From Nitrospirota bacterium (lineage in GTDB: Bacteria; Nitrospirota; Thermodesulfovibrionia; Thermodesulfovibrionales; JdFR-85): a stretch of 64,000 nucleotides of DNA. Of this stretch, positions 6,234-63,096 are shown piece by piece. Each line of letters begins with the position of its first letter. Position 1 is the first letter of the stretch. Both the position numbers and the translations under genes were made by a program. The stretch spans positions 3,842-67,841 of the forward strand of contig WFMM01000152.1 in assembly GCA_015484595.1 (NCBI GenBank), in the 5' to 3' direction. Below the pieces are notes generated by a model, which saw only the letters and a program-made list of their open reading frames with translations, ran no database searches and was not told where the DNA came from.

Positions 6234-7193
6234 ATGAAGAAACCAGGACCTGTATCACTCAGGAAACTCAAGCGTTACAGCCTCAGGGAACGAACAAGCA
6301 AGGTAAGGGCTGAATGCCTTGGCAGACCTGTCCCGAAGGGGGCAACCCTTTCTGAGTTTGTCAACTCCCTGCCCGATGTGCTGGCGGCAAAGGATATTAA
6401 AGAGGTAGCCAGGGCAGTGGTTGATGCAAAACACAAAAGAAGACCTGTGGTGCTTGCAATGGGTGCACATCCGATAAAGGTGGGGCTTTCGCCTATCATA
6501 ATAGACCTTATGGAGCAGGGCTACATCACTGCAGTGGCAACCAATGGTGCAGCTATTGTTCATGACTTTGAGATTGCCTTTGCAGGGCATACATCAGAGG
6601 ATGTGGCCTCCAGTCTAACGGATGGCTCCTTTGGAATGGCAAAGGAGACAGGCTCAATGCTAAACAGGGCAATAAAGAAGGCATCCCGTGAAGGAAAGGG
6701 TATCGGCCTTGCTGTGGGTGAGTTGATAGAAAGGGGAAAAAACTTTCCCAATCGCCATCTAAGCCTCTTTGGAAATGCCTTCAGACTTGGAATACCTGCC
6801 ACCGTGCATGTTGCCATTGGCACAGACATTATCCACATGCATCCTGAGTGTGATGGCTCGGCAGTGGGAGATGCAAGCTACAGGGACTTCAGGATACTTA
6901 CATCGGTGGTGTCTGAACTTGAAGGCGGGGTCTTTATCAACCTCGGTTCAGCAGTATTAATCCCTGAGGTGTTCCTTAAGGCCCTGACCATTGCAAGGAA
7001 TCTTGGCCACAAGGTGCAGAGCTTTACTACGGTAACCATGGATTTTATGAAACACTACCGCTCAACGGTAAATGTGGTTCAGAGACCAACCATGACGGGT
7101 GGAAAGGGTTATTATCTGATAGGTCATCATGAGATTATGTTTCCACTGCTTGCTGCAATGGTTAAGATAGAAGACGGACACAGGGAGGTCTGA
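6234..7193 (+). CDS. Conserved hypothetical protein, deoxyhypusine-synthase-like (DHS-like NAD-binding fold) by pattern only
   Basis: 319 aa. The segment ITAVATNGAAIVHDFEIA...HVAIGTDIIHMHP resembles the DHS family core. Its stop overlaps the argD start (ATGA at 7193). Confidence 0.4.
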   Translation: MKKPGPVSLRKLKRYSLRERTSKVRAECLGRPVPKGATLSEFVNSLPDVLAAKDIKEVARAVVDAKHKRRPVVLAMGAHPIKVGLSPIIIDLMEQGYITAVATNGAAIVHDFEIAFAGHTSEDVASSLTDGSFGMAKETGSMLNRAIKKASREGKGIGLAVGELIERGKNFPNRHLSLFGNAFRLGIPATVHVAIGTDIIHMHPECDGSAVGDASYRDFRILTSVVSELEGGVFINLGSAVLIPEVFLKALTIARNLGHKVQSFTTVTMDFMKHYRSTVNVVQRPTMTGGKGYYLIGHHEIMFPLLAAMVKIEDGHREV

Positions 7194-18471: not shown

Positions 18472-18552
18472 GCGTTAATAGCGTTTATTGAGTTAAATGA
18501 GTTTGTTGGGGGTGGGTGTGTAGTTAGTGTTGAGTTTTGAGTGTTGAGTTAA
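18472..18552. repeat. Degenerate 9-bp tandem array (GCGTTWATN decaying to GAGTT units)
   Basis: The array reads gcgttaata|gcgtttatt|gagttaaat|gagtttgtt|gggggtggg|tgtgtagtt|agtgttgag|ttttgagtg|ttgagttaa. Confidence 0.7.
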
Positions 18553-18592
18553 GGTTTTTTACTAAGCACTAAAAACTATGCACTCAAAACTA

Positions 18593-18616
18593 ATAACTAC
18601 CCCCTACACCCTATCC
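18593..18616 (-). repeat. 7-bp TAGGGNN tandem array, read on the minus strand, flush with the recJ stop
   Basis: The minus strand reads TAA|GGA|TAGGGTG|TAGGGGG|TAGTTAT. Confidence 0.7.
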
Positions 18617-20302
18617 TTAACCAGCTGGTCTCAGGGTCTTCAGTTTTAGTTGAAGGAACCTTCCTCCTTCCCACTCATTCACCTGTGGACAGAACACGGC
18701 ATCCACCCTGCCACAATCTGCCACCTGCATAAATCTTTCAGCCATGTCAAACCCAATGGCGTCAAGCACCACATTCTGGTCTCTTAAAGACATCTTCAGG
18801 TGATTATTCCCCACAACCCTTGCGTTTAGAACCTCGAGACCCTTTGCACCAAACAGGGGGTCAGGATTTCCAGCACCAAAGGGCTCAAGCCTTTCGAGCT
18901 CACTTATCAGCTCAAAGCTTACATCCCTGAACCTTACCTGTGCATCTATGGTAAGGGTGGGCACGAGGTCGTCATCGGTTAGCATTGATGCCACTGTCTC
19001 ATTTATCCTTTCTTCAAACTCTGAAAGCCTCTGTGCCTTCAGTTTCAGCCCTGCGGCCTGCTTATGTCCACCAAAGGCATCAAGCAGGTCTGCACACCTG
19101 CTGATTGCATCGTAGAGGTCTAATGGCGGGATACTTCTTGCAGAGCCCTTTGCATGGCCGTCGGCTATGTTAAACACAAAGGCAGGTCTGTAAAACTGCT
19201 CGGCAAGCCTTGCTGCCACTATCCCCACCACTCCTTCGTGCCAGTCCTGCCTTGCACAGACAATGGCAAAATCGAATCCTCTGTGCTCCACATCCTCCCG
19301 TGCCTCGTTGAGCACCTCTTCCTCGATCTGCTGTCTTCTGAGATTAAGCTCATTGAGCCTTGATGCTATCTCAAGGGCCTCATCGTAATCAGTGGTGGTA
19401 AGCATCCTTATCACATCTCTTGCATGGTCAATCCTGCCAGAGGCATTTATCCTCGGGATAAGGGTAAAGCCAAGAAGCCCTGCGGTGATGCTTCCAGCCC
19501 TGAGCCCTGAGACCTCTGTAAGTGCACGAATACCAGGTCTTTCTGCAGAGTTTATAAGCCTCAGTCCCTCTTTAACCACAATCCTTGCCTCATCCACAAG
19601 GGGTATTATGTCTGCAACCGTGCCAAGCGTTACAAGGTCGAGCATGGGGATTAGCTTCTCTCTTCCGAGCAGTGCCTCGGCGAGTTTAAATGAAACCATC
19701 ACGCCTGACATGGCAGGCATGTCAGGCTGAAGCCTTGGATTAATCACCACATCTGCCTCTGGCAAAAGGGGTGCACCCTGCTCAGTGCGTTTTGGTTCGT
19801 GATGGTCGGTTACGATTACACCGATACCCTCAGCTCGGGCCTGCTTTATGGTATCAAAGGAGGTGATGCCACAGTCCACGGTGATTATTAGGGAGGCTGA
19901 AATCTCCTTTGCAAAGGAAAGTCCGCCCATGCCAAAGCCGTAGCCATCGGAGAACCTGTCAGGGATGTAGTAGTGCACATCTGCACCAAGCTCGCTGAGG
20001 GTGGTTAAGAGAACAGAAGTGGCAGTGGTGCCATCGGTGTCGTAATCACCATGAATAAGGATTCTCTTTCCACTGGATATGGCTGAAAAGATAATCTCCC
20101 TTGCCTCTTTAATGCCCTTTAGCCTGAAGGGGTCTGAAAGGCTGTCTATGTCAGGTGAGAGGAACAGCCTTACTGCCTCTGGGGTCTTGATACCACGGTT
20201 TATGAGTATCTGAGCCAGAGGGGTGGTTATCCCTGCAGCAGAAGAAAGATACCTTATGTACTCAGGGTTTGTCCTCTGAACAAACCATCTACGCTCTGGC
20301 AT
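18617..20302 (-). CDS. recJ: Single-stranded-DNA-specific exonuclease RecJ
   Basis: 561 aa with DHH-family motifs (HGDYDTDG, VTDHH, GGHKQAAG). Confidence 0.92.
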   Translation of the reverse strand: MPERRWFVQRTNPEYIRYLSSAAGITTPLAQILINRGIKTPEAVRLFLSPDIDSLSDPFRLKGIKEAREIIFSAISSGKRILIHGDYDTDGTTATSVLLTTLSELGADVHYYIPDRFSDGYGFGMGGLSFAKEISASLIITVDCGITSFDTIKQARAEGIGVIVTDHHEPKRTEQGAPLLPEADVVINPRLQPDMPAMSGVMVSFKLAEALLGREKLIPMLDLVTLGTVADIIPLVDEARIVVKEGLRLINSAERPGIRALTEVSGLRAGSITAGLLGFTLIPRINASGRIDHARDVIRMLTTTDYDEALEIASRLNELNLRRQQIEEEVLNEAREDVEHRGFDFAIVCARQDWHEGVVGIVAARLAEQFYRPAFVFNIADGHAKGSARSIPPLDLYDAISRCADLLDAFGGHKQAAGLKLKAQRLSEFEERINETVASMLTDDDLVPTLTIDAQVRFRDVSFELISELERLEPFGAGNPDPLFGAKGLEVLNARVVGNNHLKMSLRDQNVVLDAIGFDMAERFMQVADCGRVDAVFCPQVNEWEGGRFLQLKLKTLRPAG

Positions 20303-20309
20303 AAAGAGA

Positions 20310-21224
20310 CTACTTCTTTTTAATCAGCGGCCCCTTACCCTTCCACATCAGCACTATGGGGCTTGCCACAAATATGGATGAATAGGTTCCCACTGTAATA
20401 CCGAGTATCATGGCAAGGGCAAAATCGTGAATTACTGCCCCTCCAAAAAGGAACAATGCCAGGGCCGCAAGTAATGTGGTTATGGAGGTTATTAGGGTTC
20501 GTGAAAGCACCTCGTTGATGCTTCTGTTGAAGACCGCCTCAAGGGTTTCCTTTGAGATAAATCGGAGGTTTTCCCTGATTCGGTCAAAGACCACTACCGT
20601 ATCTGTTAGGGAATAACCAGCAATAGTTAATAGTGCACTTACGAGCACGAGGTTTATCTCTCTGCCCGTTATGTTGAAGATGCCAAGCACGGCAAGCACA
20701 TCGTGAAAGGTCGCAATGGTGGCTCCAACGCTGAAACGGAACTGAAACCGCCAGGCTATGTAAATCAGAATTCCGATAGTAGCAGCCACAATGGCCCACA
20801 TTGCATCTCTGCGGAGTTTTGAGCCCACCTTAGGTCCAATTTCCATCGTGGAATCTACGGTAATCTTATTGTCTTTAAATCCCTCTTTCAAAGAGCTGAT
20901 TATCCTGTCAGAGATAGCACCAAGCTTTTTTTCTTTTTTCTTTATCTTTACAAGCACCTTGTTCACGGTGGGAAAGTCCTGTAACTCAAAGTCTTTCACT
21001 CCTTTAGATTCAAGCACAGCCCTTACCTGCTGAAGGGTAACAGGCTTTTCGAACTTTAACATCACGGCAGTTCCACCGGCGAAGTCAATACCAAGATTTG
21101 CAGTACCGTTGGCAACCTGTATGATACCAATGATTCCCAGTGCCATCAGTATACCTGATATTAAAAAGGCAATCTTTCTAAACCCCATAAAGTCAATGTT
21201 TGTTTTCTTAACTATCTCAATCAT
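20310..21224 (-). CDS. secF: Protein translocase subunit SecF
   Basis: 304 aa with the typical SecF TM pattern. It overlaps the secD stop by 4 nt. Confidence 0.95.
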
Positions 21225-22840
21225 ATGCTCAGCTTCTTAACCTCCCTTCTTGAGTTGATGATGTCAAACACGGTCTTGGTACCCACCAGGGCGGTAAAAA
21301 GGTTTATGGCAACACCAAGGCTAAGTGTGACGGCAAACCCCTTTATGGGGCCTGTTCCAAACTGAAACAGAACTGCAGCAGTTATCAGCGTGGTGACATG
21401 AGAGTCAACGATGGTAATGAAGGCCTTGTCGTACCCTGAGTCAACTGCAGCCCTTGGTGTCTTTCCAGCCCTCAACTCCTCCCTCATCCTTTCAAACATG
21501 AGAACATTTGAGTCAACTGCCATACCAACGGCAAGCACAATACCTGCTATGCCTGGCATGGTGAGGGTTGCATTTAGAAATGCCATTGCTCCAAGCAGAA
21601 GTATAACATTAAGAAGCATTGCAAAGTCTGCTATAAGACCTGAAAGCTTATAGTAAAATGCCATGAACAGGGTAACAAGCAGTATTGCAATAATACCAGC
21701 CTTTTTACCAGCCTCTATGGAGTCCCTGCCAAGTGAGGGGCCCACCGTAATGTTTTGTAGGAGCTTCACAGGTGCTGGAAGTGCACCTGCCCTAAGGACA
21801 ATGGCAAGGTCTTTTGCCTCCTCCATGCTGAAAGAGCCGGTTATCTGTGCGCTACCACCAGCGATGCGTTCCCTTATAACCGGGGCTGAATATACATTGT
21901 TATCCAGTATTATTGCAAGCCTCTTCTGAACATATTTGCCCGTTACCTCTTCGAATATCTTTGCACCTGTTTTGTTAAAGGTAAGAGAGACATAGGGCTC
22001 ATTGAACCTCTGGTCAATGGCCACCCTTGCCTCAGAGAGAAGATCACCTGTAAGAAGCACCTCCTTTTTAAGCAAAAAGGGCTTCTTTTTAACCTCTCCT
22101 GTTTCTCTGTTTACAACCCTTTTAAAGAGGATAATGTCATCCTTCGGGATTTTGTCTTTAAATTTCTTGATAACATCCTGTTCTTCACCGGGCATCACAT
22201 AGGCAGGTAACTCAGCAGCCACGGGAGATTCGTCATCCACCAGCCTGAACTCAAGCTGTGCAGTTTTTCCAATAAGCTCTACCGCCCTTTTTGGGTCTTT
22301 GTACCCGGGAAGCTGAACCACTATCTCGTTTGTTCCCTGTCTGTGTATTACGGGCTCTGCCACACCAAACTGGTCAACCCTGTTTCGAATGGTCTCAAGG
22401 GCCTGCTCGGTGGCGTTGTCTTTTATCCGCCTTACCTCTTTGTCGTTAAGCTTAAACACAAGGGCTTTGTCAGAGGGAACCATGTCCAGAGTGGGATAGG
22501 CATCGAGTATTGCCTGCCTGACCTCAGGCTCTTTGCTGGTAACCACAATCCTTGAGTTTTCAACCTTTATATCAGCACGGAGTTTCCTTTTCTTAAGTAT
22601 CTCCTTCAGTCTGTCGGCTATTCTCTCAAGGGTAATCTCCACGGCCCTGTCACCTTCGACCTCAAACACCAGATGCACACCACCCTTCAGATCGAGACCA
22701 AGTGCTATGCCCCTGTTAGGCATGTTGTCCTTCCACCACTGTGGCATGTACTTAAATACGGGTGTGTTGGGAAGAAAAAATACAAAGGCAAGTAAAACTG
22801 TTCCGATTATAAGTGCTACCTTCCATTTTACTTTCTTCAT
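21221..22840 (-). CDS. secD: Protein translocase subunit SecD
   Basis: 539 aa with a large periplasmic domain followed by the C-terminal six-TM SecD core. Confidence 0.95.
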
Positions 22841-22848
22841 CCTACCTC

Positions 22849-23547
22849 CTACGCCATCCGTGTATTATTAATAAAAAGGTTAAACTCTGACTTCAGCACC
22901 TTTGCTGCCCTGCGGCAGGCCATCATTCTTGAAAGAAATATCTCAAAATACTCTATCACAGGTGACATCCTTGTATCTATAACCAGTGAAAGGATAATCT
23001 TTCTTGCCTCTGGCTCTACTATAAGTTCTGACTTTGTTGCAGCATAATTTACCCTGTCGTGTATGTCCTCAGAGACCATGGAGGGGTTTCTAACCCTGCT
23101 TCTGTGCACATCAGACTTGTCGGCTATCAATAGGGAAGCAGCTATCTCATCCGGAATTGCCCCCTCGCTTTCTTCGTGAACCACAATGGCTGTCATAATC
23201 CTCGTGATGTCTCTGAGTGAAAAACCCACCTCCTCCAGGACCTCCTTTGCAAGTAGGGCGCTCATCTTGTTATGCATGTTACGACCAAGCATATTTCCTA
23301 TATCGTGGAGAAACCCTGCTGCTGCAGCCAGACAGGCAATCCTCTCAGGATAACCTAATTTTTTTATAATCCTATAGGCTGTATTGGAGACAATCTTACA
23401 GTGTCTGAAGCCATGCTCTGTGTAGCCTATGGCCTCAAGATATCTGTCGGCTGCTTCTATGTATAGACGCGCCTTTTCGTTTCTGTACAACCCCTCTATA
23501 TCAGGAAGTGCATCAGTCTTCGTCTGCAGTAGATCTGAGTGTTGCAA
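22849..23547 (-). CDS. HD-domain phosphohydrolase
   Basis: HGFRHC...FLHDIGN provides the H...HD signature. Confidence 0.7.
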
Positions 23548-23854
23548 TGTAGGCCTTCCCCAGTTTTATCTTTGTGTTTTCTGCAATCTTTATGGTAACG
23601 GTCTTTTCTCCTACCGAATCAACCACCCCGTAAATTCCGCCTGAGGTGATCACCTTATCGCCTTTTTTGAGTGAGGCAAGCATCTCCCTGTGTTCCTTTG
23701 CCCTCTTCTGCTGTGGCCTGATCAGCAGAAAGTAGAATATGGCAAAGATGATTATCAGTGGCAGAAAGCTCATAAATACAGACTGCGGTCCACCTGCCTG
23801 CCCTGCCTGCTGTGATGGGGCCATTGCCCATGCAACTGAGTCAAATAACATCAT
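23513..23854 (-). CDS. yajC: Preprotein translocase subunit YajC
   Basis: It has a single TM followed by IRPQQKRAKEH...KKGDKVITSGGIYG. Confidence 0.9.
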   Translation of the reverse strand: MMLFDSVAWAMAPSQQAGQAGGPQSVFMSFLPLIIIFAIFYFLLIRPQQKRAKEHREMLASLKKGDKVITSGGIYGVVDSVGEKTVTIKIAENTKIKLGKAYIATLRSTADED

Positions 23855-23922
23855 TCACCTCCCGGTTTATGTGGAGCCCTCAAGGAGCTCTGACTTTTTG
23901 GCTTTTATTTATAAACTCAAGG

Positions 23923-23988
23923 AACTCAATCAACGCAACGAACGCAATAAACGCGATAAACGCAACAAACGCAATTAACGCAACCAAC
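23923..23988. repeat. 9-bp tandem array, AACGC orientation (about 6-7 units)
   Basis: The array reads aactcaat|caacgcaac|gaacgcaat|aaacgcgat|aaacgcaac|aaacgcaat|taacgcaac|caacc. Confidence 0.8.
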
Positions 23989-24157
23989 CGTCGTAAATTC
24001 GATGAAATTCAGTCTTATATACTACCTATTTCAACAGTTTTTATCAAGTGCTACTCGTTGAGTGTACTAAATGAACAATACCGTCTTTCTTTGACATAAC
24101 ACATATCATTATGTTAAAAAATAAAATTCCAGAAATCTCTTTCTCAAAGGTGCTAAG

Positions 24158-25417
24158 GTGCATTATTTTCGTTACAAAAACAATACACTTTATGCAGAGG
24201 AGGTCTCGGTTGCCTCACTTGCAAAGCAGTACGGCACACCCCTGTACATCTATAGTGCCAGGACTCTCCGTCGCCACATAAAGGCATACACCGATGCATT
24301 AAAAGGTCTCCCCCACATTGTCTGTTACGCAGTGAAGGCAAATTCCAGTGCAGCCATACTCAGGCTACTTGGCTCAATGGGGGCAGGAGCTGATGTGGTC
24401 TCAGGTGGTGAACTCTACAGGGCACTCAGGGCAGGCATACCTGCCCAAAAGGTGGTCTTTGCAGGAGTGGGAAAGACAGACGAAGAGATTGAATATGCCA
24501 TCAAAAAGGGGATCCTCATGTTTAACATAGAGTCCCTTGAGGAGATGGAAAATATAAATCGTATCGCCCAGAGGTTAGGCAAAAGGGCTTCTGTTGCACT
24601 GAGGATAAACCCTGACATCGACCCTGAGACCCATCCATACATATCAACAGGGCTTAAGAAGAACAAGTTTGGCCTCCCCATTGAGAGGGCACTTGAGTTT
24701 TACAGGGAGGCAAGCAGCATGAAGAACCTCAGAGTTGTTGGTATCCACAAACACATAGGCTCACAGATAACGAAGGTAACCCCCTTCGTTGATGCCCTTA
24801 AGAGGGTAATGGTGCTTTTTGACAATCTTAAACAGGAGGGTATTAACATAAAGTATCTGGACATTGGTGGAGGGCTTGGCATTCAGTACAACGACGAAAA
24901 CCCTCCACATCCAAAGGAGCTTGCAAAGAGGATAATACCTGTTATTAAGGGCAGAGACGTCACCCTGATAGTGGAGCCTGGCAGGTCGATTGTAGGAAAT
25001 GCAGGCATCTTTGTAACAAAGGTGTTATATACTAAAGAAGGCGTTGACCGCAGGTTCATAATCGTTGACGGTGGAATGAATGACCTTCTAAGGCCCTCAC
25101 TTTACAATGCCTATCACCACATCATCCCTGTTAAGAGAAGGAGGGTGAAAAAGGTATTTGCAGATGTGGTTGGTCCCATTTGCGAGTCAGGGGACTTCCT
25201 TGCAAAGGGAAGGGAGCTTCCCTCGGTTTCAAGGTCAGACCTCCTTGCAGTGCTAAGTGCCGGGGCCTATGGTTTCAGCATGAGCTCCAATTATAACAGC
25301 CGTCCAAGGCCTGCAGAGGTGCTGGTTGATGGAAACAAACACTACCTGATAAGGAAACGGGAAACCCTTAACGACCTTATCAGAGGAGAAAGGATACCCG
25401 AACACCTGAGGGGATAG
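24158..25417 (+). CDS. lysA: Diaminopimelate decarboxylase (GTG start)
   Basis: 419 aa with the typical LysA sequence (YAVKANS, GGGLGI, EPGRSIV, CESGD). Confidence 0.95.
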   Translation: MHYFRYKNNTLYAEEVSVASLAKQYGTPLYIYSARTLRRHIKAYTDALKGLPHIVCYAVKANSSAAILRLLGSMGAGADVVSGGELYRALRAGIPAQKVVFAGVGKTDEEIEYAIKKGILMFNIESLEEMENINRIAQRLGKRASVALRINPDIDPETHPYISTGLKKNKFGLPIERALEFYREASSMKNLRVVGIHKHIGSQITKVTPFVDALKRVMVLFDNLKQEGINIKYLDIGGGLGIQYNDENPPHPKELAKRIIPVIKGRDVTLIVEPGRSIVGNAGIFVTKVLYTKEGVDRRFIIVDGGMNDLLRPSLYNAYHHIIPVKRRRVKKVFADVVGPICESGDFLAKGRELPSVSRSDLLAVLSAGAYGFSMSSNYNSRPRPAEVLVDGNKHYLIRKRETLNDLIRGERIPEHLRG

Positions 25418-25419
25418 AT

Positions 25420-26307
25420 ATGACCATCAACTTCACCAAGATGCACGGACTTGGAAATGATTTTATCTTAATTGACTCTATAAGTCAGGAGGGGTTAAAC
25501 AATCTGAAGGATGACAGTCTCCGAAAAACCATTGTTTTCCTCTGTAACAGGCGTTTTGGTATAGGTGCTGATCAGCTGCTTATGCTTCTTCCTTCAAAAA
25601 TAGCCGACTTTCGTATGCGGATATTCAATGCCGATGGCTCTGAAGTGGAGATGTGTGGAAACGGGATAAGGTGTTTTGCAAAGTACATATGGGAGCGGGG
25701 AATATCCGAGAAGAACCCCCTTGAGGTTGAAACACTTGCAGGCATTATAAGACCCGAGAAAAAGGGAGAACTCGTGAGGGTTGACATGGGAGAGCCCGAA
25801 TTCAGGCCTGAAAGGATACCTGTGTATGCAGAATATCTCAACAGTGAAAAACTAAAGGAGCCTGACCGGATAATTGGCTATCCCCTTAAGATTGAGGGAA
25901 GGGAGTTTTTGCTTTCCTGTGTTTCAATGGGGAACCCACACTGTGTTATAGTGGTAAACGATACAAAGAGCTTTCCGGTAAGTTATTATGGCCCGTTAAT
26001 TGAAAACCACCAGCTCTTTCCAAATCGCACCAATGTTGAGTTCATAGAAATCATTAGCAGACAGGAGATAAACATGAGGGTCTGGGAGCGAGGTGCTGGT
26101 GAGACCATGGCCTGTGGGACAGGTGCCTCTGCATCAGCCGTGATATCTGCATTAAGGGGACTTACCGACAGAGAGGTGACCGTGCACCTGCTTGGTGGTG
26201 ACCTTCATATTGAATGGGCTCAGGACAATCATGTTTACATGACCGGCCCAGCCACAGCCGTCTTTGACGGAACAATCAATTTGCCCAAAGAGGTAGCAGA
26301 TGCCTGA
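25420..26307 (+). CDS. dapF: Diaminopimelate epimerase
   Basis: FTKMHGLGNDF is present, along with the two catalytic Cys contexts (MCGNG and ACGTG). Confidence 0.95.
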   Translation: MTINFTKMHGLGNDFILIDSISQEGLNNLKDDSLRKTIVFLCNRRFGIGADQLLMLLPSKIADFRMRIFNADGSEVEMCGNGIRCFAKYIWERGISEKNPLEVETLAGIIRPEKKGELVRVDMGEPEFRPERIPVYAEYLNSEKLKEPDRIIGYPLKIEGREFLLSCVSMGNPHCVIVVNDTKSFPVSYYGPLIENHQLFPNRTNVEFIEIISRQEINMRVWERGAGETMACGTGASASAVISALRGLTDREVTVHLLGGDLHIEWAQDNHVYMTGPATAVFDGTINLPKEVADA

Positions 26308-26578
26308 AAGGAGAAGGTTTACGAGGAAGCCTGTAAAAGTAGAGGTTAGATATACAGTTACAGACCTTCAGACCACCTATGCATCTGTGGTTGAGGCAAA
26401 GGGAATAATAGTGGATATTTCCTCAAAGGGCTTTGGCATTGTAACCAGTTATCCTCTTAAAAAGGGACATGTTATAACCATAAGAGAGGGTAAAAGGGAA
26501 GGTCTGCCTGATTACGGAATGGTCAGGTGGTCAGACAGCCATAACAACCTGATAAGGGCAGGATTGACCTTTAGTTGA
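26300..26578 (+). CDS. Single-domain PilZ protein (putative c-di-GMP receptor)
   Basis: 92 aa. RRRFTRKP supplies the RxxxR motif and DISSKG supplies the D/NxSxxG motif. The start overlaps the dapF stop by 8 nt. Confidence 0.7.
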   Translation: MPERRRFTRKPVKVEVRYTVTDLQTTYASVVEAKGIIVDISSKGFGIVTSYPLKKGHVITIREGKREGLPDYGMVRWSDSHNNLIRAGLTFS

Positions 26579-26784
26579 TTCTGATAGGGCGGTTTATCAT
26601 ATAAACATTGTCAGCAAGGAGATTTTAAAGCGAGGTTGTTTGAGGGGCTCTGCCCCTCAAACTCCCCAATATGGTTAAATTATTTATCCTTATTGGGGTT
26701 CCAAAGGGGCGTAGCCCTTTCGAGGCTTCCGCCCCTCAAAAAAAGCCTGTTGAACAGGCTCTAAAACCAAAGGGAGGTAGGACC

Positions 26785-27657
26785 ATGATTCAGGGTTCAA
26801 TAGTTGCAATAGTAACACCCTTTAAAGACGGAAAGGTGGACGAGAAGGCATTTTCTGACCTGATAGAGTGGCACATAGCAGAAGGCACCAATGCAATAGT
26901 ACCCTGTGGAACCACCGGTGAGTCAGCAACACTTGATTACGAGGAGCATTACAATGTAATAAAAATTGCAATAGAGGTGGTCAACAAGAGAGTTCCAGTT
27001 ATTGCTGGCACAGGTGCAAACTCAACAGAAGAGACCATAATGATGACAAAGAAGGCAGAGGAACTGGGAGCAGATGCGGCCTTGCTCGTTGCCCCTTACT
27101 ATAACAAGCCTACTCAGGAGGGCCTTTACAGACACTACAGGGCAGTGGCTGAAAGCGTTGACCTTCCTTTAGTACTATACAATGTCCCTGGAAGAACCGC
27201 AGTAAACATTACGCCCACAACGGTTGCAAGGCTTGCAGAGTTTGAAAACATCGTGGCAATAAAAGAAGCCTCGGCAAACATGCGTCAGGTAAGCGATATC
27301 ATAAGGCTCTGTGGTGACAGGATAACCGTGCTTTCCGGTGACGACTTTACCACATTTCCTTTGATAATGTTAGGTGGTAAAGGCGTCATCTCTGTTTCAG
27401 CCAACATAGTGCCAGCAAAGGTGGCACAGCTATGCCGTCTTGCCAATGAAGGAAAGGTTGAAGAGGCAAGGAAACTGCACTACGAACTCGAGCCCCTCAA
27501 TGCTGCAATGTTTCTTGAAACCAATCCCATTCCAGTAAAAACCGCTCTTTCACTGATGGGAAAGATTAGAGAAGAGTTCCGTCTGCCCCTCTGTGAGATG
27601 TCTGATGCAAACAGGGAAAAACTAAAAGAAGTGCTTAAGGGGTATGGATTGATATAG
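26785..27657 (+). CDS. dapA: 4-hydroxy-tetrahydrodipicolinate synthase
   Basis: I chose the start MIQGSIVAIVTPF because AAGGGAGG sits 7 nt upstream. The track start at 26671 reads through a hairpin-rich leader. The TTGE and YNVP motifs are present. Confidence 0.93.
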   Translation: MIQGSIVAIVTPFKDGKVDEKAFSDLIEWHIAEGTNAIVPCGTTGESATLDYEEHYNVIKIAIEVVNKRVPVIAGTGANSTEETIMMTKKAEELGADAALLVAPYYNKPTQEGLYRHYRAVAESVDLPLVLYNVPGRTAVNITPTTVARLAEFENIVAIKEASANMRQVSDIIRLCGDRITVLSGDDFTTFPLIMLGGKGVISVSANIVPAKVAQLCRLANEGKVEEARKLHYELEPLNAAMFLETNPIPVKTALSLMGKIREEFRLPLCEMSDANREKLKEVLKGYGLI

Positions 27658-27710
27658 CGTTTATCGCGTTAATTGCGTTTATTGCGTTGATAGCGTTAAT
27701 TGAGTTGTTA
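27657..27710. repeat. 9-bp tandem array, GCGTT orientation, starting inside the dapA stop codon
   Basis: The array reads gcgtttatc|gcgttaatt|gcgtttatt|gcgttgata|gcgttaatt|gagttgtta. Confidence 0.85.
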
Positions 27711-27781
27711 TTGAAAACATACTTTAGCTAAAGATAGTCAGGTATGTAGTTTGGAAATTAATATTTAGAGTTTCTTAACTT

Positions 27782-27799
27782 CTCTGTGTTCTCTGTGGT
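27782..27799. repeat. Solo copy of the CTCTGTG 9-bp repeat (two units)
   Basis: ctctgtgtt|ctctgtggt followed by ttt has the same terminus as the right end of the GxxExxY cassette. Confidence 0.6.
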
Positions 27800-27841
27800 T
27801 TTTATATTCTTTGAAATTTATTCATAGTTTCCAATCACGAG

Positions 27842-32557: not shown

Positions 32558-33010
32558 ATGGCGATAAGAAGGATAATCGCTGTAATAGGTGGCCGCGATG
32601 CCACCAAGGAGCAGCTAAGGCTGGCTGAGGAGGTTGGACGTGAGATTGCCCTGTCAGGTTCAGTGCTTCTAACAGGTGGTCTTTCTGGCGTTATGGAGGC
32701 AGCATCAAAGGGCGCAAAGGAGGCAGGCGGCACTGTGGTGGGTGTCTTACCCCAGGATGAGAAAGGATGGGCAAATCCCTATGTTGATATACCAATAGCC
32801 ACTGGACTGGGAATCGGAAGAAATGTTATCATAGCACGCACTGCAGATGCATTGATCGCTGTAGGTGGAGGGTACGGAACCCTCTCAGAGATTGCCTTTG
32901 GATTGCAGCTGGGTAAGCCCGTTATAGGGCTTCAGAGCTGGGAGATAAAGGGAGTTATAAAGGCCAGAACACCCAAAGAGGCCGTATCTCTTTCAGTAAC
33001 TAAAAACTAA
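32558..33010 (+). CDS. TIGR00725/LOG-like Rossmann-fold protein
   Basis: The start is taken at MAIRRIIAVIGG. The GGGYGTLSE motif is present. The track's 47-aa upstream extension overlaps uvrA and a hairpin. Confidence 0.7.
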   Translation: MAIRRIIAVIGGRDATKEQLRLAEEVGREIALSGSVLLTGGLSGVMEAASKGAKEAGGTVVGVLPQDEKGWANPYVDIPIATGLGIGRNVIIARTADALIAVGGGYGTLSEIAFGLQLGKPVIGLQSWEIKGVIKARTPKEAVSLSVTKN

Positions 33011-33037
33011 TAATTATTAACTAACAACTCCATATCC

Positions 33038-33114
33038 GCCCCCTTAGCTCAGTAGGATAGAGCACAGGATTCCTAATCCTGGTGTCAGAGGTTCGAATCC
33101 TCTAGGGGGCACCA
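33038..33114 (+). tRNA. tRNA-Arg (anticodon CCT), CCA encoded
   Basis: I folded the cloverleaf by hand. The acceptor stem is GCCCCCT/AGGGGGC and the D stem is GCTC/GAGC. The anticodon stem is CAGGA/TCCTG with loop TTCCTAA. The T arm is AGAGG-TTCGAAT-CCTCT, and the 3' end is ACCA. Confidence 0.9.
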
Positions 33115-33123
33115 TATTTTATA

Positions 33124-33158
33124 TAGGGTGTAGGGATTAGGGTGTAGGGGGTAGTAAA
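33124..33158 (+). repeat. 7-bp TAGGGNN tandem array (five units); it contains a canonical G-quadruplex motif
   Basis: The array reads tagggtg|tagggat|tagggtg|taggggg|tagtaaa. Confidence 0.85.
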
Positions 33159-33239
33159 TTAATTAACCCAATTAACCAAACACACTTTTTTTCTTTAAAA
33201 TCACAGGGAAAGTTTATTGATAACCATTGACTATTGAAT

Positions 33240-33290
33240 AATAAGTTTTTTTTATTTGACCAAATAGGCAAGACTGTATTATGGTTTAAT
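33240..33290 (+). promoter_or_regulatory. Candidate dsrA promoter (A/T UP-like tract, TTGACC, TGTATTAT)
   Basis: The sequence is AATAAG-T8-A-TTTGACC-N15-TATTAT, about 60 nt upstream of the dsrA ATG. It is nearly identical in layout to 44228-44278, upstream of dsrC. Confidence 0.5.
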
Positions 33291-33351: not shown

Positions 33352-34551
33352 ATGCCACAGAAACATCCAACGCCACTAATTGACGAGCTGGAAAAGGGCG
33401 CTTTTCCAAGTTTCGTCAAAGAGATCAAGAGGGCAGCTGAAAGCAGCAATGTTCAGGACAACAACTACGCTCAGGACCTTCTTGGTCAGTTGGAACTCTC
33501 CTACAAGGAGAAAAAGACACACTGGAAACACGGTGGTATCGTAGGTGTCAGGGGTTACGGTTCTGGTGTTATCGGCAGATACTCTGATATTCCTGACCAG
33601 TTCCCTGGTGTTGCACACTTTCACACAATCAGGGTTAACCAGCCAGGTGGATTCTTCTACACAACCGAGGCGCTTCGCGAGATCTGTGACATCTGGGACA
33701 AGTACGGAAGTGGTCTTACAAACATGCACGGCTCCACAGGTGACATAATCCTTCTTGGCACCAAGACAGACAACCTGGAGCCTGTCTTTGCAGAGCTATC
33801 CTCAAGGGGCTGGGACCTCGGTGGTTCAGGTTCAGCAGTGAGGACCCCAAGCTGTTGTGTTGGCCCAGCAAGGTGTGAGTGGGCTTGCTATGATACCCTT
33901 GAGCTTACCTACCAGATAACGCAGAGGTTCCAGGATGAACTTCACAGGCCAATGTTTCCATACAAGTTTAAATTCAAGATGGCAGGATGTGCAGTGGACT
34001 GCATTGCATCCATTGCCCGTGCTGACATGTCAATAATCGGTACCTGGAAGGGTAACATCCAGATTGACCAGGACGAGGTCAGAAATTATGCCAAAAATGG
34101 CATGGACATACAGGCAGAGATCGTTGACATGTGTCCAACTGGCTGCATGAGCTGGGATGGAAATGAGCTTAAGATCAACGATGAAGACTGTAACAGGTGC
34201 ATGCACTGTATTGCCAAGATGACCAAGGCCCTCAGACAGGGTGAGGAAAAGGGTGCAACCATCCTGCTTGGTTCAAAGGCACCAATCGTTACAGGTGCAC
34301 TCATGTCATGGGTAATCGTTCCATTTATCAAGCTTGAGCCACCCTATGAGGAGCTCTTTGACCTGGTCGAGAGGATCTGGGAGTTCTGGGATGAGCATGG
34401 TAAGAACCGTGAAAGGGTCGGTGAGCTTATAGAGAGGATGGGCTTTCCTGTATTCCTGAAGGAGACCGGAATCGAGCCGCATCCTGCAATGGTGAAAGAG
34501 CCAAGGCGTGACCCATTCTTCTTCTGGTCAGAAGAGGATGTAGAGAAGTAA
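33352..34551 (+). CDS. dsrA: Dissimilatory sulfite reductase alpha subunit
   Basis: 399 aa with siroheme/FeS Cys clusters ([14 protein letters not shown]) and a ferredoxin insert (CPTGC...CNRCMHC). dsrB follows with strong RBSs. Confidence 0.95.
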
Positions 34552-41356: not shown

Positions 41357-41433
41357 GTAATAAATATTCAGTGTATACAAGATGTAAAGATGGCAGATTT
41401 TTAAAGATATAGAGAATTTGCAATCTGAATAAC

Positions 41434-41485
41434 TGGATTTTGGACTTTGTTTAGGATTTAGGAATTAGAATTTAGAGTTTAATCT
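41434..41485. repeat. 7-bp tandem array (TTAGGAT family) in the cytochrome leader
   Basis: The array reads tggattt|tggactt|tgt + ttaggat|ttaggaa|ttagaat|ttagagt|ttaatct. Confidence 0.7.
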
Positions 41486-43844: not shown

Positions 43845-44225
43845 ATGAAGTACAGAGAAGACAAGAGCACACTATATGAGCCACGGTGTCCCTTTTGCAG
43901 GGATTTTTTTTCAAGACCAGTAGATATAGATACCGATTTCGGGGCCTTTTCAGGAGGGGTCTGTAGCTGCGGCGCTGTGTATGCCTTTGACCCAACAGGT
44001 AGAAACCTGGGGGAGACCTTTATGGATGCCCTCTCATACGCCTGTGGTGGTGATTACGAAAAGGCGGTGAGTCTTGAGGCAGGAGTGGATTACGAAGAAT
44101 ACATATTACAGTACAATTACAGAACCCATAGCATCTCTCCAGGAAGGGCCTACAGTTTATTCGATAGAAGAGCAAGGGGAATGCTTTACTTTGTAAAATT
44201 AAAAAATATTAAGGCCACTGATTGA
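43845..44225 (+). CDS. Cys-rich hypothetical protein (putative zinc ribbon)
   Basis: 126 aa. CPFC-X24-CSC suggests four Cys ligands near the N-terminus. I recognised no family. The gene lies between the cytochrome terminator and the dsrC promoter. Confidence 0.5.
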   Translation: MKYREDKSTLYEPRCPFCRDFFSRPVDIDTDFGAFSGGVCSCGAVYAFDPTGRNLGETFMDALSYACGGDYEKAVSLEAGVDYEEYILQYNYRTHSISPGRAYSLFDRRARGMLYFVKLKNIKATD

Positions 44226-44227
44226 AA

Positions 44228-44278
44228 AATAAGTTTTTTTAATTTGACCCTAAAATAAAAACTGTATTATTGTTTATA
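44228..44278 (+). promoter_or_regulatory. Candidate dsrC promoter, paralogous in layout to the dsrA promoter
   Basis: The pattern is AATAAG-T7-AA-TTTGACC-N15-TATTAT-TGTTTA. It shares the outer blocks AATAAGTTTTTTT, ATTTGACC and ACTGTATTAT.GTTTA with 33240-33290. Confidence 0.5.
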
Positions 44279-44345: not shown

Positions 44346-44681
44346 ATGCCAACATTAGAATTCCAGGGCAAACAGATCGAGGTCGATGAGGAAGGTTATC
44401 TCCAGAACCTTGATGACTGGACTCCTGAGCTTGCTGCCTACATGGCTCAGCAGGATGGTCAGGAACTGACAGACGAGCACTGGGAGATCATCAACTTTCT
44501 GAGGGATTATTATCAGAAGTATCAGATTGCTCCAATGATCAAGATTCTGGTTAAGGAGATCAAAAAGACCATGGGACCTGATAAGGGTAACACCAAGTAT
44601 CTCTATCAGCTCTTTCCAGATGGTCCAGCAAAGCAGGCCTGTAGGTATGCAGGACTGCCAAAACCAACAGGTTGCGTATAA
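44346..44681 (+). CDS. dsrC: DsrC
   Basis: 111 aa. The C-terminal arm CRYAGLPKPTGCV carries the two conserved Cys residues, and the N-terminus has the TusE-like pattern. Confidence 0.95.
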   Translation: MPTLEFQGKQIEVDEEGYLQNLDDWTPELAAYMAQQDGQELTDEHWEIINFLRDYYQKYQIAPMIKILVKEIKKTMGPDKGNTKYLYQLFPDGPAKQACRYAGLPKPTGCV

Positions 44682-51077: not shown

Positions 51078-51087
51078 AACTTTTATA

Positions 51088-51115
51088 CAGGGTGCAGGGG
51101 GTAGGGTGTAGTAAA
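51088..51115 (+). repeat. 7-bp TAGGGNN-family array in the mglB-mglA spacer
   Basis: The array reads cagggtg|caggggg|tagggtg|tagtaaa. Confidence 0.75.
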
Positions 51116-51713: not shown

Positions 51714-51769
51714 AATTCTAAATCCTAAATTCTAATTTCTAAACAAATCACAAATATTAAATTCCAATT
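51714..51769. repeat. 7-bp tandem array (AAATTCT, the complement orientation of the TTAGGAT family)
   Basis: The array reads aaattct|aaatcct|aaattct|aatttct|aaacaaa|tcacaaa|tattaaa|ttccaat. Confidence 0.7.
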
Positions 51770-51819
51770 TTTCAAACAACATCATTTAAAATTGGTTACT
51801 AAATCATTAAGTCATTATC

Positions 51820-52793: not shown

Positions 52794-52837
52794 GCGTTTA
52801 TTGCTTAAATGCATTTATAGCGTTACTTGCGAATTAT
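52794..52837. repeat. 9-bp GCGTT-family array filling the porA-porB intercistronic gap
   Basis: The array reads gcgtttatt|gcttaaat|gcatttata|gcgttactt|gcgaattat and overlaps the porA stop. Confidence 0.7.
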
Positions 52838-61178: not shown

Positions 61179-61195
61179 AGTTTTTAATATTAAAC

Positions 61196-61222
61196 CACAG
61201 AGAGCACAGAGTTCACAGAGAG
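61196..61222. repeat. 9-bp CACAGAG tandem array (left arm)
   Basis: The array reads cacagagag|cacagagtt|cacagagag. Confidence 0.85.
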
Positions 61223-61310: not shown

Positions 61311-61646
61311 CTATTTTTTATTCATTGCTTTTAAATATGTTATAAGTTGAGCTTCGTGTATCCTCTGTATTGATTCTATAGCCTTTAATTCTAATACTAC
61401 TTCATTTTCTACCAGAAAATCTATTCTATGATTGCCTATTTTTTTCCCTTTATAAAACAGGCTTATCTCTTTTTGTCTTTCAAAAATAATTCCTCTTATT
61501 GAAAATTCATGTGATAATGCATCTTCATAAACTTTTTCAAGTAAACCTGGGCCTAAAATAGCATGAACCTCAATTGCAGAAGAAATTATCTTATCGGTTA
61601 TTTCTTTTAAAGGATATTTGTCATTTCCTTTTAAATTAGACTCCAT
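61311..61646 (-). CDS. GxxExxY protein (PD-(D/E)XK nuclease-fold family)
   Basis: The start is taken at MESNLKG. GLLEKVY is the GxxExxY motif, and RIDFLV...VLELKA is the D...ExK motif. The track's 34-aa N-terminal extension reads through the repeat and into gltX. Confidence 0.8.
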   Translation of the reverse strand: MESNLKGNDKYPLKEITDKIISSAIEVHAILGPGLLEKVYEDALSHEFSIRGIIFERQKEISLFYKGKKIGNHRIDFLVENEVVLELKAIESIQRIHEAQLITYLKAMNKK

Positions 61647-61650
61647 AAAA

Positions 61651-61677
61651 CTCTGTGCTCTCTGTGTCCTCTGTGGT
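61651..61677. repeat. 9-bp CTCTGTG tandem array (right arm, inverted)
   Basis: The array reads ctctgtgct|ctctgtgtc|ctctgtggt and abuts the gltX stop codon. Confidence 0.85.
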
Positions 61678-63096
61678 TTAGTTGTTTTGTGCAATCTTAA
61701 TCGCCCTCTGAAGTCTTCTAAGGGTTTTATCTTTCCCAATGATCTCAATTACCTCAAAGATACCCGGGCTTGCGGTGCCGCCGGTTAAGGCTACACGCAC
61801 AGGCTGGGCAACATGGCGGAGTTTGGTCTGGTGTTTTTCAACAACATTCTTAAAGAGTTTCTCAAGGGCCTCTTCAGAAAACCCTTCCATATTTTCGATA
61901 CCCTCTTTGACCTCCTTCAGGTAGGGCAGGTACTTTTCCGTCAGAAACTTATTACTGGCCTTTTCATCAAACTCTACATCCTCGGTAAAATAGTAACGCA
62001 TGCTTCGGGCAAACTCCTGAAGGGTTTTGGCCCTCTGTTTGTAAGACTCCACTGCCTTAGTGAGCCAGGCTCTCTCAGGCATTTTCTCATCACTGATTAA
62101 TCCTTCTTTTTTCAGGAAAGGAATCACAAGGTCAACCAACTTTTCTGTTGGTGTCTGCATGATGTACTGGGAAGTAAGCCACAGAAGTTTTTCAGGGTTA
62201 AAAACTGCAGCTGTTTTAGCCACACCCTCAAGTGAGAACTTCTCTATCAGTTCTTCCTTTGAAAATATCTCCTGATCACCATAAGACCAGCCAAGTCTCA
62301 CAAGATAGTTAACCATTGCCTCGGGTAGATAGCCCATCTCCCTGTATGCCTGCACACTTGTGGCACCATGGCGCTTGCTTAAACGGGTCTTATCAGGGCC
62401 AAGGATCATGGGTATATGTGCGAATTTTGGTATTTGAAAGTCCAGTGCCCTGTATATCTGGATCTGCTTTGGTGTGTTGTTAAGGTGGTCGTCACCTCGT
62501 ATTACATGGGTAATACCCATCTCCACATCATCAACAACCACAACAAAATTGTAGGTTGGAGTGCCATCTGAACGCATTATGATAAGGTCATCAAGCTGGT
62601 CGTTTGGATAGGAGACATTTCCTTTTATAAGATCCTGAATAATTGTTACCCCTGCATCTGGCATCTTGAACCTTACAACAGGTTTTCTATCTGATGGTGG
62701 GTTTTTCAGATCAAGACAGCGACGGTCATATTTGATAATCCCCTTTCCTTCTTTCATTGCCTGCTGACGACGCTCTTCGAGTTCCTCTGGTGTGCAGTAG
62801 CAATAGTATGCCTTCCCTTCGTCAAGAAGCCTCTGCACATAACGCTGATATATCTCCATTCGGTCGGTCTGACGATAGGGGCCTTCATCCCAGTCGAGTC
62901 CAAGCCATTTCATTCCATCAATGATTGCCTCAATATACTCTTCTGTAGACCGGCTGCGGTCTGTGTCTTCTATTCGTAGAATGAATGTCCCTTTGTGCTT
63001 ACGGGCAAAGAGCCAGTTAAAAAGGGCTGTTCTTGCTCCTCCAATATGAAGATAACCTGTTGGGCTTGGTGCAAACCTTACTCTAATCTCAGACAC
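61678..63096 (-). CDS. gltX: Glutamate--tRNA ligase
   Basis: 472 aa containing [18 protein letters not shown] (HIGH-type) and the KLSKR motif. Confidence 0.95.

Follow-up and report, generated by a model that had tools for sequence, protein, structure and literature searches.

The 64,000-nucleotide stretch of Nitrospirota DNA analyzed here (hereafter the window; assembly GCA_015484595.1, contig WFMM01000152.1, positions 3,842 to 67,841) carries tandem arrays of a 9-bp unit beginning with GCGTT, and these arrays raise the question of what they are and what reads or maintains their unit. The affiliation of the window is seen in the named homologues of its UvrC protein, which are labeled Nitrospirae, Nitrospirota, Thermodesulfovibrionales or Dissulfurispira. 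Two genes of the sulfite reductase family (NIR_SIR) are present; we take the pair as dsrAB-type and the host as a sulfite-reducing member of the phylum known from a metagenome-assembled genome (MAG). The explanation that we favor, and to which we give an even chance, is that the GCGTTNRTN arrays are modular intergenic repeats whose unit would be a reiterated recognition site, read by a protein on duplex DNA in a 9-bp register.

All four GCGTT loci of the window are intergenic. Array 1 (27657-27710, + strand; GCGTTTATC GCGTTAATT GCGTTTATT GCGTTGATA GCGTTAATT GAGTTGTTA) comprises five GCGTTNRTN units followed by a terminal GAGTT unit; its first base is the last base of the dapA stop codon, and it ends 132 bp upstream of uvrC. 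Array 2 (23910-23981, - strand; GCGTTAATT GCGTTTGTT GCGTTTATC GCGTTTATT GCGTTCGTT GCGTTGATT GAGTTCCTT GAGTTTATA) has six GCGTT units and two terminal GAGTT units and is located in the divergent yajC/lysA spacer, with its GAGTT end 56 bp from the yajC start. Arrays 2 and 1 frame the lysA-dapF-pilZ-dapA cluster as an inverted pair. Array 3 (18472-18507, + strand; GCGTTAATA GCGTTTATT GAGTTAAAT GAGTTTGTT) consists of two GCGTT and two GAGTT units in 9-bp phase. It is flanked by the gene of a DtxR-like regulator and the 3′ end of recJ, is antisense to both, and runs straight into a long hairpin element. Array 4 (52794-52837, + strand; GCGTTTATT GCTTAAAT GCATTTATA GCGTTACTT GCGAATTAT) is a decayed relic, whose phase is not strict because of one 8-bp unit and mutated cores. 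It occupies the 60-bp spacer between the genes for the alpha and beta subunits of a 2-oxoacid:ferredoxin oxidoreductase and is also antisense to both. An initial annotation of the window had described four loci with 5 to 9 units each in strict 9-bp phase. This description fits arrays 1 and 2, but not array 3, with its four units, nor the relic array 4. It had also extended the third array to 18552; the 9-bp phase holds from 18472 to 18507, whereas 18508-18552 is a G/T-rich array of heptamer type that forms the left arm of the long hairpin.

The arrays are far from chance. The pattern GCGTT-N4-GCGTT has 10 matches in the window versus 0.02 expected, and 10 was reached in no shuffle. Chains of at least three phased GNGTT cores were observed 3 times, versus 0.02 in shuffles, and Tandem Repeats Finder (TRF) reports a period of 9 for arrays 1 and 2. 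An 18-bp super-unit, suggested by TRF rows of period 18, was rejected, as there is no alternation at position 9 (p = 0.72). A Chi-like recombination signal was likewise discarded, since GCGTT is not over-represented outside the arrays: of its 67 occurrences in the window, 15 fall within arrays by our own count and 52 outside, against 45.1 +/- 6.8 expected.

Within the unit, some positions are fixed and others drift. The family consensus is G C G T T T A T W. The unit had been given as GCGTTWATN, of which the length and the GCGTT core stand, but it is better written G-C-G-T-T-N-R-T-W, with the skeleton G.GTT..T. In an 18-unit allele of array 1 found in L335 (ENA scaffold REYS20-1), which came from a protein look-up and not from a pattern search, G1, G3, T4, T5 and T8 are present in 18 of 18 units, and all 30 deviations fall at positions 2, 6, 7 and 9. 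Were 30 deviations distributed evenly among nine positions, some five of these would remain free of change with a probability of ~3e-9 by our own arithmetic. Bystander arrays, which lay outside the selection by the search pattern, have T8 in 92%, W9 in 93%, A7 in 80% and T6 in 64% of their units. A search with positions 1 and 2 left free gave G1 in 95% of units and, at position 2, C in 85%, A in 9%, G in 4% and T in 2.6%. Cytosine deamination was rejected as the origin of the core variants because position 2 changes in the order C>A>G>T and not C>T. According to our reading of the printed units, T8 is kept also in arrays of Planctomycetia (L073) and Desulfobacterales (L097). The positions that vary are the same ones in all lineages sampled. 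Units of 8 bp (GCGTTATA) make up ~7% of units in low-GC relatives. The idea of protein-binding arrays, raised in the initial annotation, fits this position-specific invariance of the sequence.

The arrays also have a direction. The boundary word GCGTTNNTTGAGTT occurs, as reported, at 27693-27706, 23923-23936 and 18481-18494, and the polarity deduced from it recurs outside the window. Of 59 GAGTT units, 31 belong to the final quarter of their array, a GCGTTTATTGAGTTTATC end is found also in L083, a distant MAG, and a GCGTTGCTTGAGTTTATC end is found in L021. Because GAGTT and GGGTT variants are most frequent toward the 3′ end and that end recurs in a distant MAG, we consider the polarity to be real.

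How far does the family extend? A scan of one genome per species for four GCGTT cores at 9-bp spacing (N4) returned mostly unrelated, perfect coding repeats of high GC content. It also detected look-alikes in Nitrospirota MAGs (L006; L057 and L083, isolate L.E.N.5_1), in the unclassified bacterium L021, where the array directly follows a tRNA gene, and in other phyla, namely in the Planctomycetia and Desulfobacterales MAGs mentioned above. A stricter pattern applied to metagenomes gave at least 120 loci, which fall into two classes. Perfect or GC-rich arrays are mostly within open reading frames (ORFs) and represent ordinary coding repeats. The degenerate, AT-rich class comprises 100 arrays among the matches listed, of which 84 are outside ORFs of at least 100 amino acids. 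Degenerate non-ORF arrays number at least 75 in 41 metagenome loci of 31 to 56% GC; they have 6 units in the median and 23 at most. Together with those in Nitrospirota MAGs among the matches listed, they show that the arrays are not restricted to this window. A viral origin was rejected: the 92 IMG/VR matches are nearly all perfect coding repeats, with only 1 degenerate intergenic array. A literature search by keywords and literal unit strings found no description of GCGTT arrays, and their 9-bp skeleton, polarity and spread across Nitrospirota appear to be new.

The initial annotation proposed a comparison of array lengths between strains, which proved positive. L335 is 99.57% identical to window positions 20794-27709 over 6.9 kb, and its array 1 has 18 units versus 6 in the window. 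The two alleles have their first two units in common and then diverge together with the downstream cassette: the 110 bp found 3′ of array 1 in the window correspond in L335 to a 353-bp cassette, in which a copy of the hairpin element accompanies a longer TTTAGRA heptamer array. L001 matches the window with 100.000% identity over 10,193 bp; it has the alternative cassette of L335 and breaks there, and a Logan contig ends within array 1, at 27679. Array 2 has 8 units in the window and 9 in L335; the extra 9-bp unit and 2 single-nucleotide polymorphisms (SNPs) of the yajC/lysA spacer are all inside the array, and the remaining 228 bp are unchanged. A Logan contig from another run begins exactly at the array 2 indel site, 23932, and carries one of the L335 SNPs. 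Array 3 and its hairpin are reproduced exactly in the sister assembly L337 (GCA_027071435.1), and L340, which covers the array 4 locus in the sister assembly, matches the window at all but 2 of 3056 positions over the whole span. In contrast, relatives whose UvrC is 78 to 81% identical have a dapA-uvrC spacer of 62 bp without any array.

Since independent assemblies agree, alleles differ and the spacer of the relatives has no array, we regard the arrays as real, fast-changing, lineage-specific insertions. Their presence in independent ENA, Logan and NCBI assemblies argues against an assembly artifact, and their length variation between strains, along with their occurrence in metagenome loci and Nitrospirota MAGs, bears out the earlier description of a dispersed, minisatellite-like family.

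The manner in which the arrays change length points to more than one process. Between L217 and L227, whose flanks are 98.7% identical, a 95-bp indel represents one module plus five units, with its junction inside the array. Identical pairs make up 9.26% of adjacent units and 9.22% of nonadjacent units. As block replacements start inside arrays and identical neighbors are not in excess, recombination between dispersed arrays is probably the main route of resizing, and the single one-unit indel in array 2 shows that slippage also occurs. Gain, loss and resizing would then mostly take place by recombination between dispersed arrays and their neighboring modules, with occasional slippage of a single unit. 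If so, the arrays would act as portable homology that shuffles intergenic cassettes.

These data bear on the simplest alternative, that the arrays are neutral simple-sequence DNA generated by slippage in spacers, with no function and no reader. Copy number does differ between strains, including by one clean single-unit indel, the orthologous spacer of relatives lacks arrays, and the arrays reach right up to stop codons, as though filling free space. In addition, other spacers of the window hold further short-unit arrays, CACAGAGNN 9-mers and TAGGGTG, TTTAGGA and TAACTAA heptamers, so that the GCGTT family exemplifies a more general tendency of this genome. However, decay should strike all nine positions, while five are invariant and four are free alike across lineages of 31 to 56% GC and in other phyla. 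Slippage also predicts runs of identical neighbors, none of which are in excess, and independent slippage would not be expected to yield a GAGTT 3′ end that recurs across genera. We thus judge neutrality quite improbable.

That identical neighbors are not in excess similarly affects another possibility, that the arrays are footprints of cut-and-paste transposons, each insertion and excision adding one unit by target duplication and the skeleton reflecting target preference. Target duplications of 9 bp are common (IS1, IS10, IS50), and such a process would explain position-specific conservation without a host function. Nevertheless, these events should leave identical units side by side, of which there is no excess, some units are only 8 bp long, allelic differences involve many-unit blocks together with adjacent modules, and there is no transposase among the 134 ORFs that neighbor arrays. 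Footprints of this type are hardly credible, which disfavors the "recombination scars" of the initial annotation in the sense of 9-bp target duplications. The arrays do not qualify as ends of mobile elements either, including those of insertion sequences or miniature inverted-repeat transposable elements (MITEs): they are direct repeats without terminal inverted repeats, and no transposase or integrase was found among the same 134 ORFs. They do adjoin a MITE-like hairpin element, which is a separate module, and indel junctions fall within them.

Do the arrays code for protein? The periodic ORFs noted initially do exist (NERNKRDKRNKRN and INATNAINAINATN), and 9 bp corresponds to three codons. 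Arrays might thus encode hydrophobic (Ala/Glu/Gly)-(Phe/Leu)-(Ile/Val/Leu) repeat peptides, for instance a membrane peptide or a type I toxin. The GNG-TTN-NTN skeleton is free of stops in frame 1 and always specifies hydrophobic residues, and array 2 lies within a 35-residue ORF with a TTG start (MVALIAFVAFIAFIAFVALIEFLEFINKSQKVRAP). The open frame follows from the skeleton itself, however, and so is no evidence for coding. The frame of array 1 has no start, since no ATG, GTG or TTG comes after the TAA at 27636-27638; the 8-bp units of relatives break the frame and create TAG; G3 is invariant although it is at a wobble position; and alleles differ threefold in length. We therefore rejected micro-ORFs as a very remote prospect.

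Structure is another matter. As stated in the initial annotation, the arrays lack hairpin potential, folding no better than shuffles (z -0.27 and +0.77). What had escaped notice is a stem-loop predicted at most ~40 nt 3′ of each clean array, on the same strand, at 3 of 3 clean arrays of the window. Array 3 is directly followed by a long imperfect hairpin element (18501-18623, + strand, ~120 nt) composed of G/T-rich heptamer-like units and their complement. Its predicted RNA fold has -51.2 kcal/mol (z -6.25) on the + (GCGTT) strand versus -32.8 kcal/mol (z -1.64) on the - strand. A second copy, 80 to 81% identical, is found 3′ of array 1 and upstream of uvrC in sister strains (L001 29-138, L335 7151-7260). 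Because this uvrC-upstream copy occurs in sister strains but not in the window, the hairpin behaves as a mobile, MITE-like module.

Other modules, hairpins as well as arrays of other short units, accompany the arrays elsewhere. In low-GC relatives, ~140-bp repeats are made up alternately of GCGTT arrays and a conserved 107-nt four-hairpin module (L181 4690-5080, L146 4326-4590, L083, L201 and others). This module consists of four GC-rich stem-loops with UGGAAKU linkers, and its copies show compensatory stem changes, e.g., CCTGC/GCAGG versus CCCGC/GCGGG. We looked for it in the window, where it is absent, and it has no Rfam match. The module may represent a so far undescribed structured RNA that carries several GGA motifs. 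At the metagenome loci L124, L212 and L215, an inverted copy of the GCGTT array comes immediately after the array itself, yielding hairpin stems of up to ~60 bp, and a 290-nt stretch of L124 folds at -107 kcal/mol. The models thus suggest that the unit family can also form palindrome arms.

Such structures lend weight to an element acting at the RNA level. The array would be the unstructured, U-rich and C-poor 5′ part of a small RNA transcribed on its own or of an untranslated region (UTR) module with one or more hairpins on its 3′ side, and the GCGUU units would dock an RNA-binding protein. The order of array and stem-loop on one strand at all three clean arrays, the ~140-bp alternation with the four-hairpin module, the compensatory changes in its stems, the G.U asymmetry that distinguishes the two strands of the long hairpin, and the common orientation of all arrays within one spacer are in line with this proposal. 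Arrays are nonetheless placed without orientation bias relative to the flanking genes (7 sense, 9 antisense, 7 divergent and 4 convergent spacers), arguing that they are not UTR modules. In addition, promoter-like and terminator-like sites are at chance level, Rfam gives no match, array 4 is antisense inside an operon, and covariation in the window hairpin is weak, with 1 compensatory pair of 41 across 3 sequences. The unit also does not fit the known repeat-binding RNA proteins or their sites (TRAP, HutP, CsrA, the ARN motif of Hfq and the YC dimers of Rho). Action at the RNA level is rather unlikely in our opinion, though it has to be reckoned with.

Three traits are left unexplained by neutral slippage: the shared five-position skeleton, units that look like independent draws, and the defined 3′ end. 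Since the skeleton is fixed across lineages and the units resemble independent draws around it, with a defined 3′ end, sequence-specific reading is the simplest common cause. Recognition of duplex DNA would be favored by the independence of array orientation from surrounding transcription and by the relic array 4, antisense inside its operon. We thus picture the arrays as noncoding, unstructured, hypervariable minisatellite modules that would belong to a modular intergenic repeat system of this Nitrospirota lineage and its relatives. Each 9-bp unit would represent one sequence-specific recognition site, in which G1, G3, T4, T5 and T8 are fixed and positions 2, 6, 7 and 9 drift. The reader would most likely be a small protein that contacts duplex DNA in a 9-bp register, such that successive sites turn by ~51 degrees and seven units correspond to six helical turns. 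The arrays would not be operators dedicated to particular genes; the absence of an array from the dapA-uvrC spacer of relatives whose UvrC is 78 to 81% identical also disfavors a gene-specific role.

Several points weigh against protein reading of duplex DNA. No binding protein was identified, and no DNA-binding or transposase family is enriched among the 134 neighboring ORFs. The invariant skeleton could stem from a constraint on how the units are propagated, with no host function behind it. Two or three assemblies underlie the strain comparisons, and a search pattern that fixed positions 7 to 9 in three units selected part of the metagenome sample. Lastly, the predicted same-strand stem-loop after each clean array and the far greater stability of the array 3 hairpin on the GCGTT strand hint, as far as folding models go, at a single-strand or RNA-level role.

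Among known systems, the best mechanistic analogy for a protein that would coat DNA in a short register is provided by the repeat sites of ribbon-helix-helix proteins, i.e., the omega heptads of pSM19035, the parH site of ParG and the metboxes of MetJ. Those operators and centromeres also consist of uninterrupted sub-sites of 7 to 9 bp with a conserved core and variable positions, their orientation matters, and several arrays may be present per replicon. They differ in that they overlap the promoters of defined operons or serve as plasmid centromeres and have a known cognate protein, whereas the GCGTT arrays are chromosomal, hypervariable, located in unrelated, nonorthologous spacers and known here from sequence alone. 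Ribbon-helix-helix genes are found near some arrays (e.g., in L181) but account for 2 of the 134 neighboring ORFs and are not enriched. The most common neighbors are small 23S_rRNA_IVP genes and toxin-antitoxin genes.

In kind, the GCGTT family resembles cyanobacterial short tandemly repeated repetitive (STRR) sequences, variable-number tandem repeats (VNTRs) and mosaic intergenic repeats. The STRR arrays of heterocystous cyanobacteria are intergenic short tandem heptamers at many loci, with several coexisting unit families that are often inverted to form hairpins. GCGTT arrays are similarly short-unit, tandem and intergenic at many loci, and several unit families, true heptamers among them (TAGGGTG, TTTAGGA, TAACTAA), coexist in one genome. 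In contrast with the STRR heptanucleotide, the GCGTT unit is a 9-mer of unrelated sequence, found in Nitrospirota, with four degenerate positions around an invariant skeleton and a defined GAGTT 3′ end; the heptamer arrays of the window are other unit families. As in bacterial VNTRs or minisatellites, units of ~9 bp follow each other head to tail, in strict phase over 6, 8 and 18 units, and copy number varies between close strains at one locus (6 versus 18; 8 versus 9). Classical VNTRs, however, are single loci of near-identical units that change by slippage. The GCGTT family is dispersed over many loci and genomes, its neighboring units are no more alike than distant ones, and its large allelic differences are block replacements of many units together with adjacent modules. 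Finally, the bacterial interspersed mosaic elements (BIMEs) of Escherichia coli, with their repetitive extragenic palindromic (REP) units, the Neisseria intergenic mosaic elements (NIMEs) and the small noncoding repeats (SNRs) of Deinococcus similarly build spacers from a small library of modules, including hairpins, in combinations that differ between loci and between strains. Such repeats likewise follow stop codons closely and interrupt assemblies. In the GCGTT family, the module is a tandem 9-mer array rather than a palindromic unit, no REP-associated tyrosine transposase (RAYT) or other transposase is nearby, and there is no sequence similarity to these repeats.

Other identities were rejected more directly. 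The arrays are not clustered regularly interspaced short palindromic repeats (CRISPR), as their 9-bp units are contiguous and without spacers, while CRISPR repeats are ~23 to 50 bp long and separated by unique spacers. Plasmid or phage iterons have 17 to 22 bp and lie beside a rep gene or an origin, in contrast to a 9-bp unit without an 18-bp super-unit among housekeeping genes. Scans for sigma-70 promoters and intrinsic terminators were at chance level. With respect to known structured RNAs, Rfam matched only tRNA-Arg in the window, and nothing significant was found in L146 or L335 at E <= 1.

One may go a step further than protein reading at these loci. From the sequence patterns, the G.GTT..T. 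nonamer might be the binding register of an undescribed sequence-specific factor, and the GAGTT-ended arrays, usually with a hairpin, might constitute a new class of bacterial chromosomal element, a suggestion whose chances we rate as fairly low. This element would be common to Thermodesulfovibrionia-like Nitrospirota and possibly occur in Planctomycetia and Desulfobacterales. If this proves true, the arrays might serve as a nucleoprotein boundary or insulator or as a dedicated site of recombination or cassette exchange, or they might be the product of a unit-adding enzyme that randomizes positions 2, 6, 7 and 9. To our knowledge, short-unit intergenic arrays such as the cyanobacterial STRRs have had no mechanism for decades. 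The GCGTT family offers a clean handle on array function, with its five fixed and four free positions, its polarity, threefold length differences between alleles whose flanks are 99.6% identical, and representatives in many uncultured genomes. Its skeleton and strain polymorphism make a hunt for the binding factor and a recombination assay directly designable. In practical terms, short-read assemblies of Nitrospirota MAGs break at the arrays, which also give rise to spurious ORFs and should therefore be masked by annotators.

Several features of the window accompany the arrays or resemble them. The remainder of the mosaic dapA-uvrC spacer (27711-27819, + strand) contains a small hairpin at ~27717-27747, a TTTGGAA/TTTAGAG heptamer remnant at 27750-27773 and two TTCTCTGTG units at 27780-27797, where the CACAGAGNN 9-mer recurs next to array 1. 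On the other side of the cluster, the region just 5′ of lysA (24090-24135, TTGACATAAC...TATGTTAAAAAATAAAAT) is kept in the relatives with 78 to 81% identical UvrC (L002 ~6330-6375; L003 ~6510-6555) and is probably the lysA promoter. Farther upstream, including array 2, there is no conservation in these relatives.

Inverted CACAGAGNN arrays bracket a small PD-(D/E)XK gene (Pfam PDDEXK_3, E 7e-34; ORF 61311-61748, - strand). Their arms, 61191-61220 and 61651-61680, are 87% complementary and 430 nt apart. The gene sits between ORFs of 558 and 472 residues, both of which look like class I Glx-tRNA synthetases by sequence, and the locus looks like an inserted cassette with repeat-array ends. The TTTAGGA-type heptamer arrays at 41426-41481 and 51719-51774 form another inverted pair, 10.2 kb apart and 71% complementary, with UAG every 7 nt; the heptamers at 27750-27773 are a short remnant of this type, of which the dapA-uvrC spacer of L335 has a longer version. 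The tRNA-Arg(CCT) gene (33038-33114) lies between a TAACTAA heptamer array on its upstream side (32997-33029) and a TAGGGTG array on its downstream side (33124-33154). The latter, with four G-runs and 4-nt loops, is a canonical G-quadruplex motif, and a related CAGGGTG/TAGGGTG array is present at ~51085-51110.

A 56-nt direct repeat of the form ATTGAAnAATAAGTTTTTTTnATTTGACC...ACTGTATTATnGTTTA occurs at 33233-33288 and 44221-44276, the copies being 82% identical. One copy precedes the first NIR_SIR (dsrA-like) gene, at 33352, and the other a 111-residue ORF at 44346; the repeat may be a shared promoter or operator. Lastly, GC and AT skew track gene orientation throughout the window, with sign flips near 24 kb and 50 kb that accompany changes of gene direction, and the coding strands are purine-rich, a trait common to many thermophiles.

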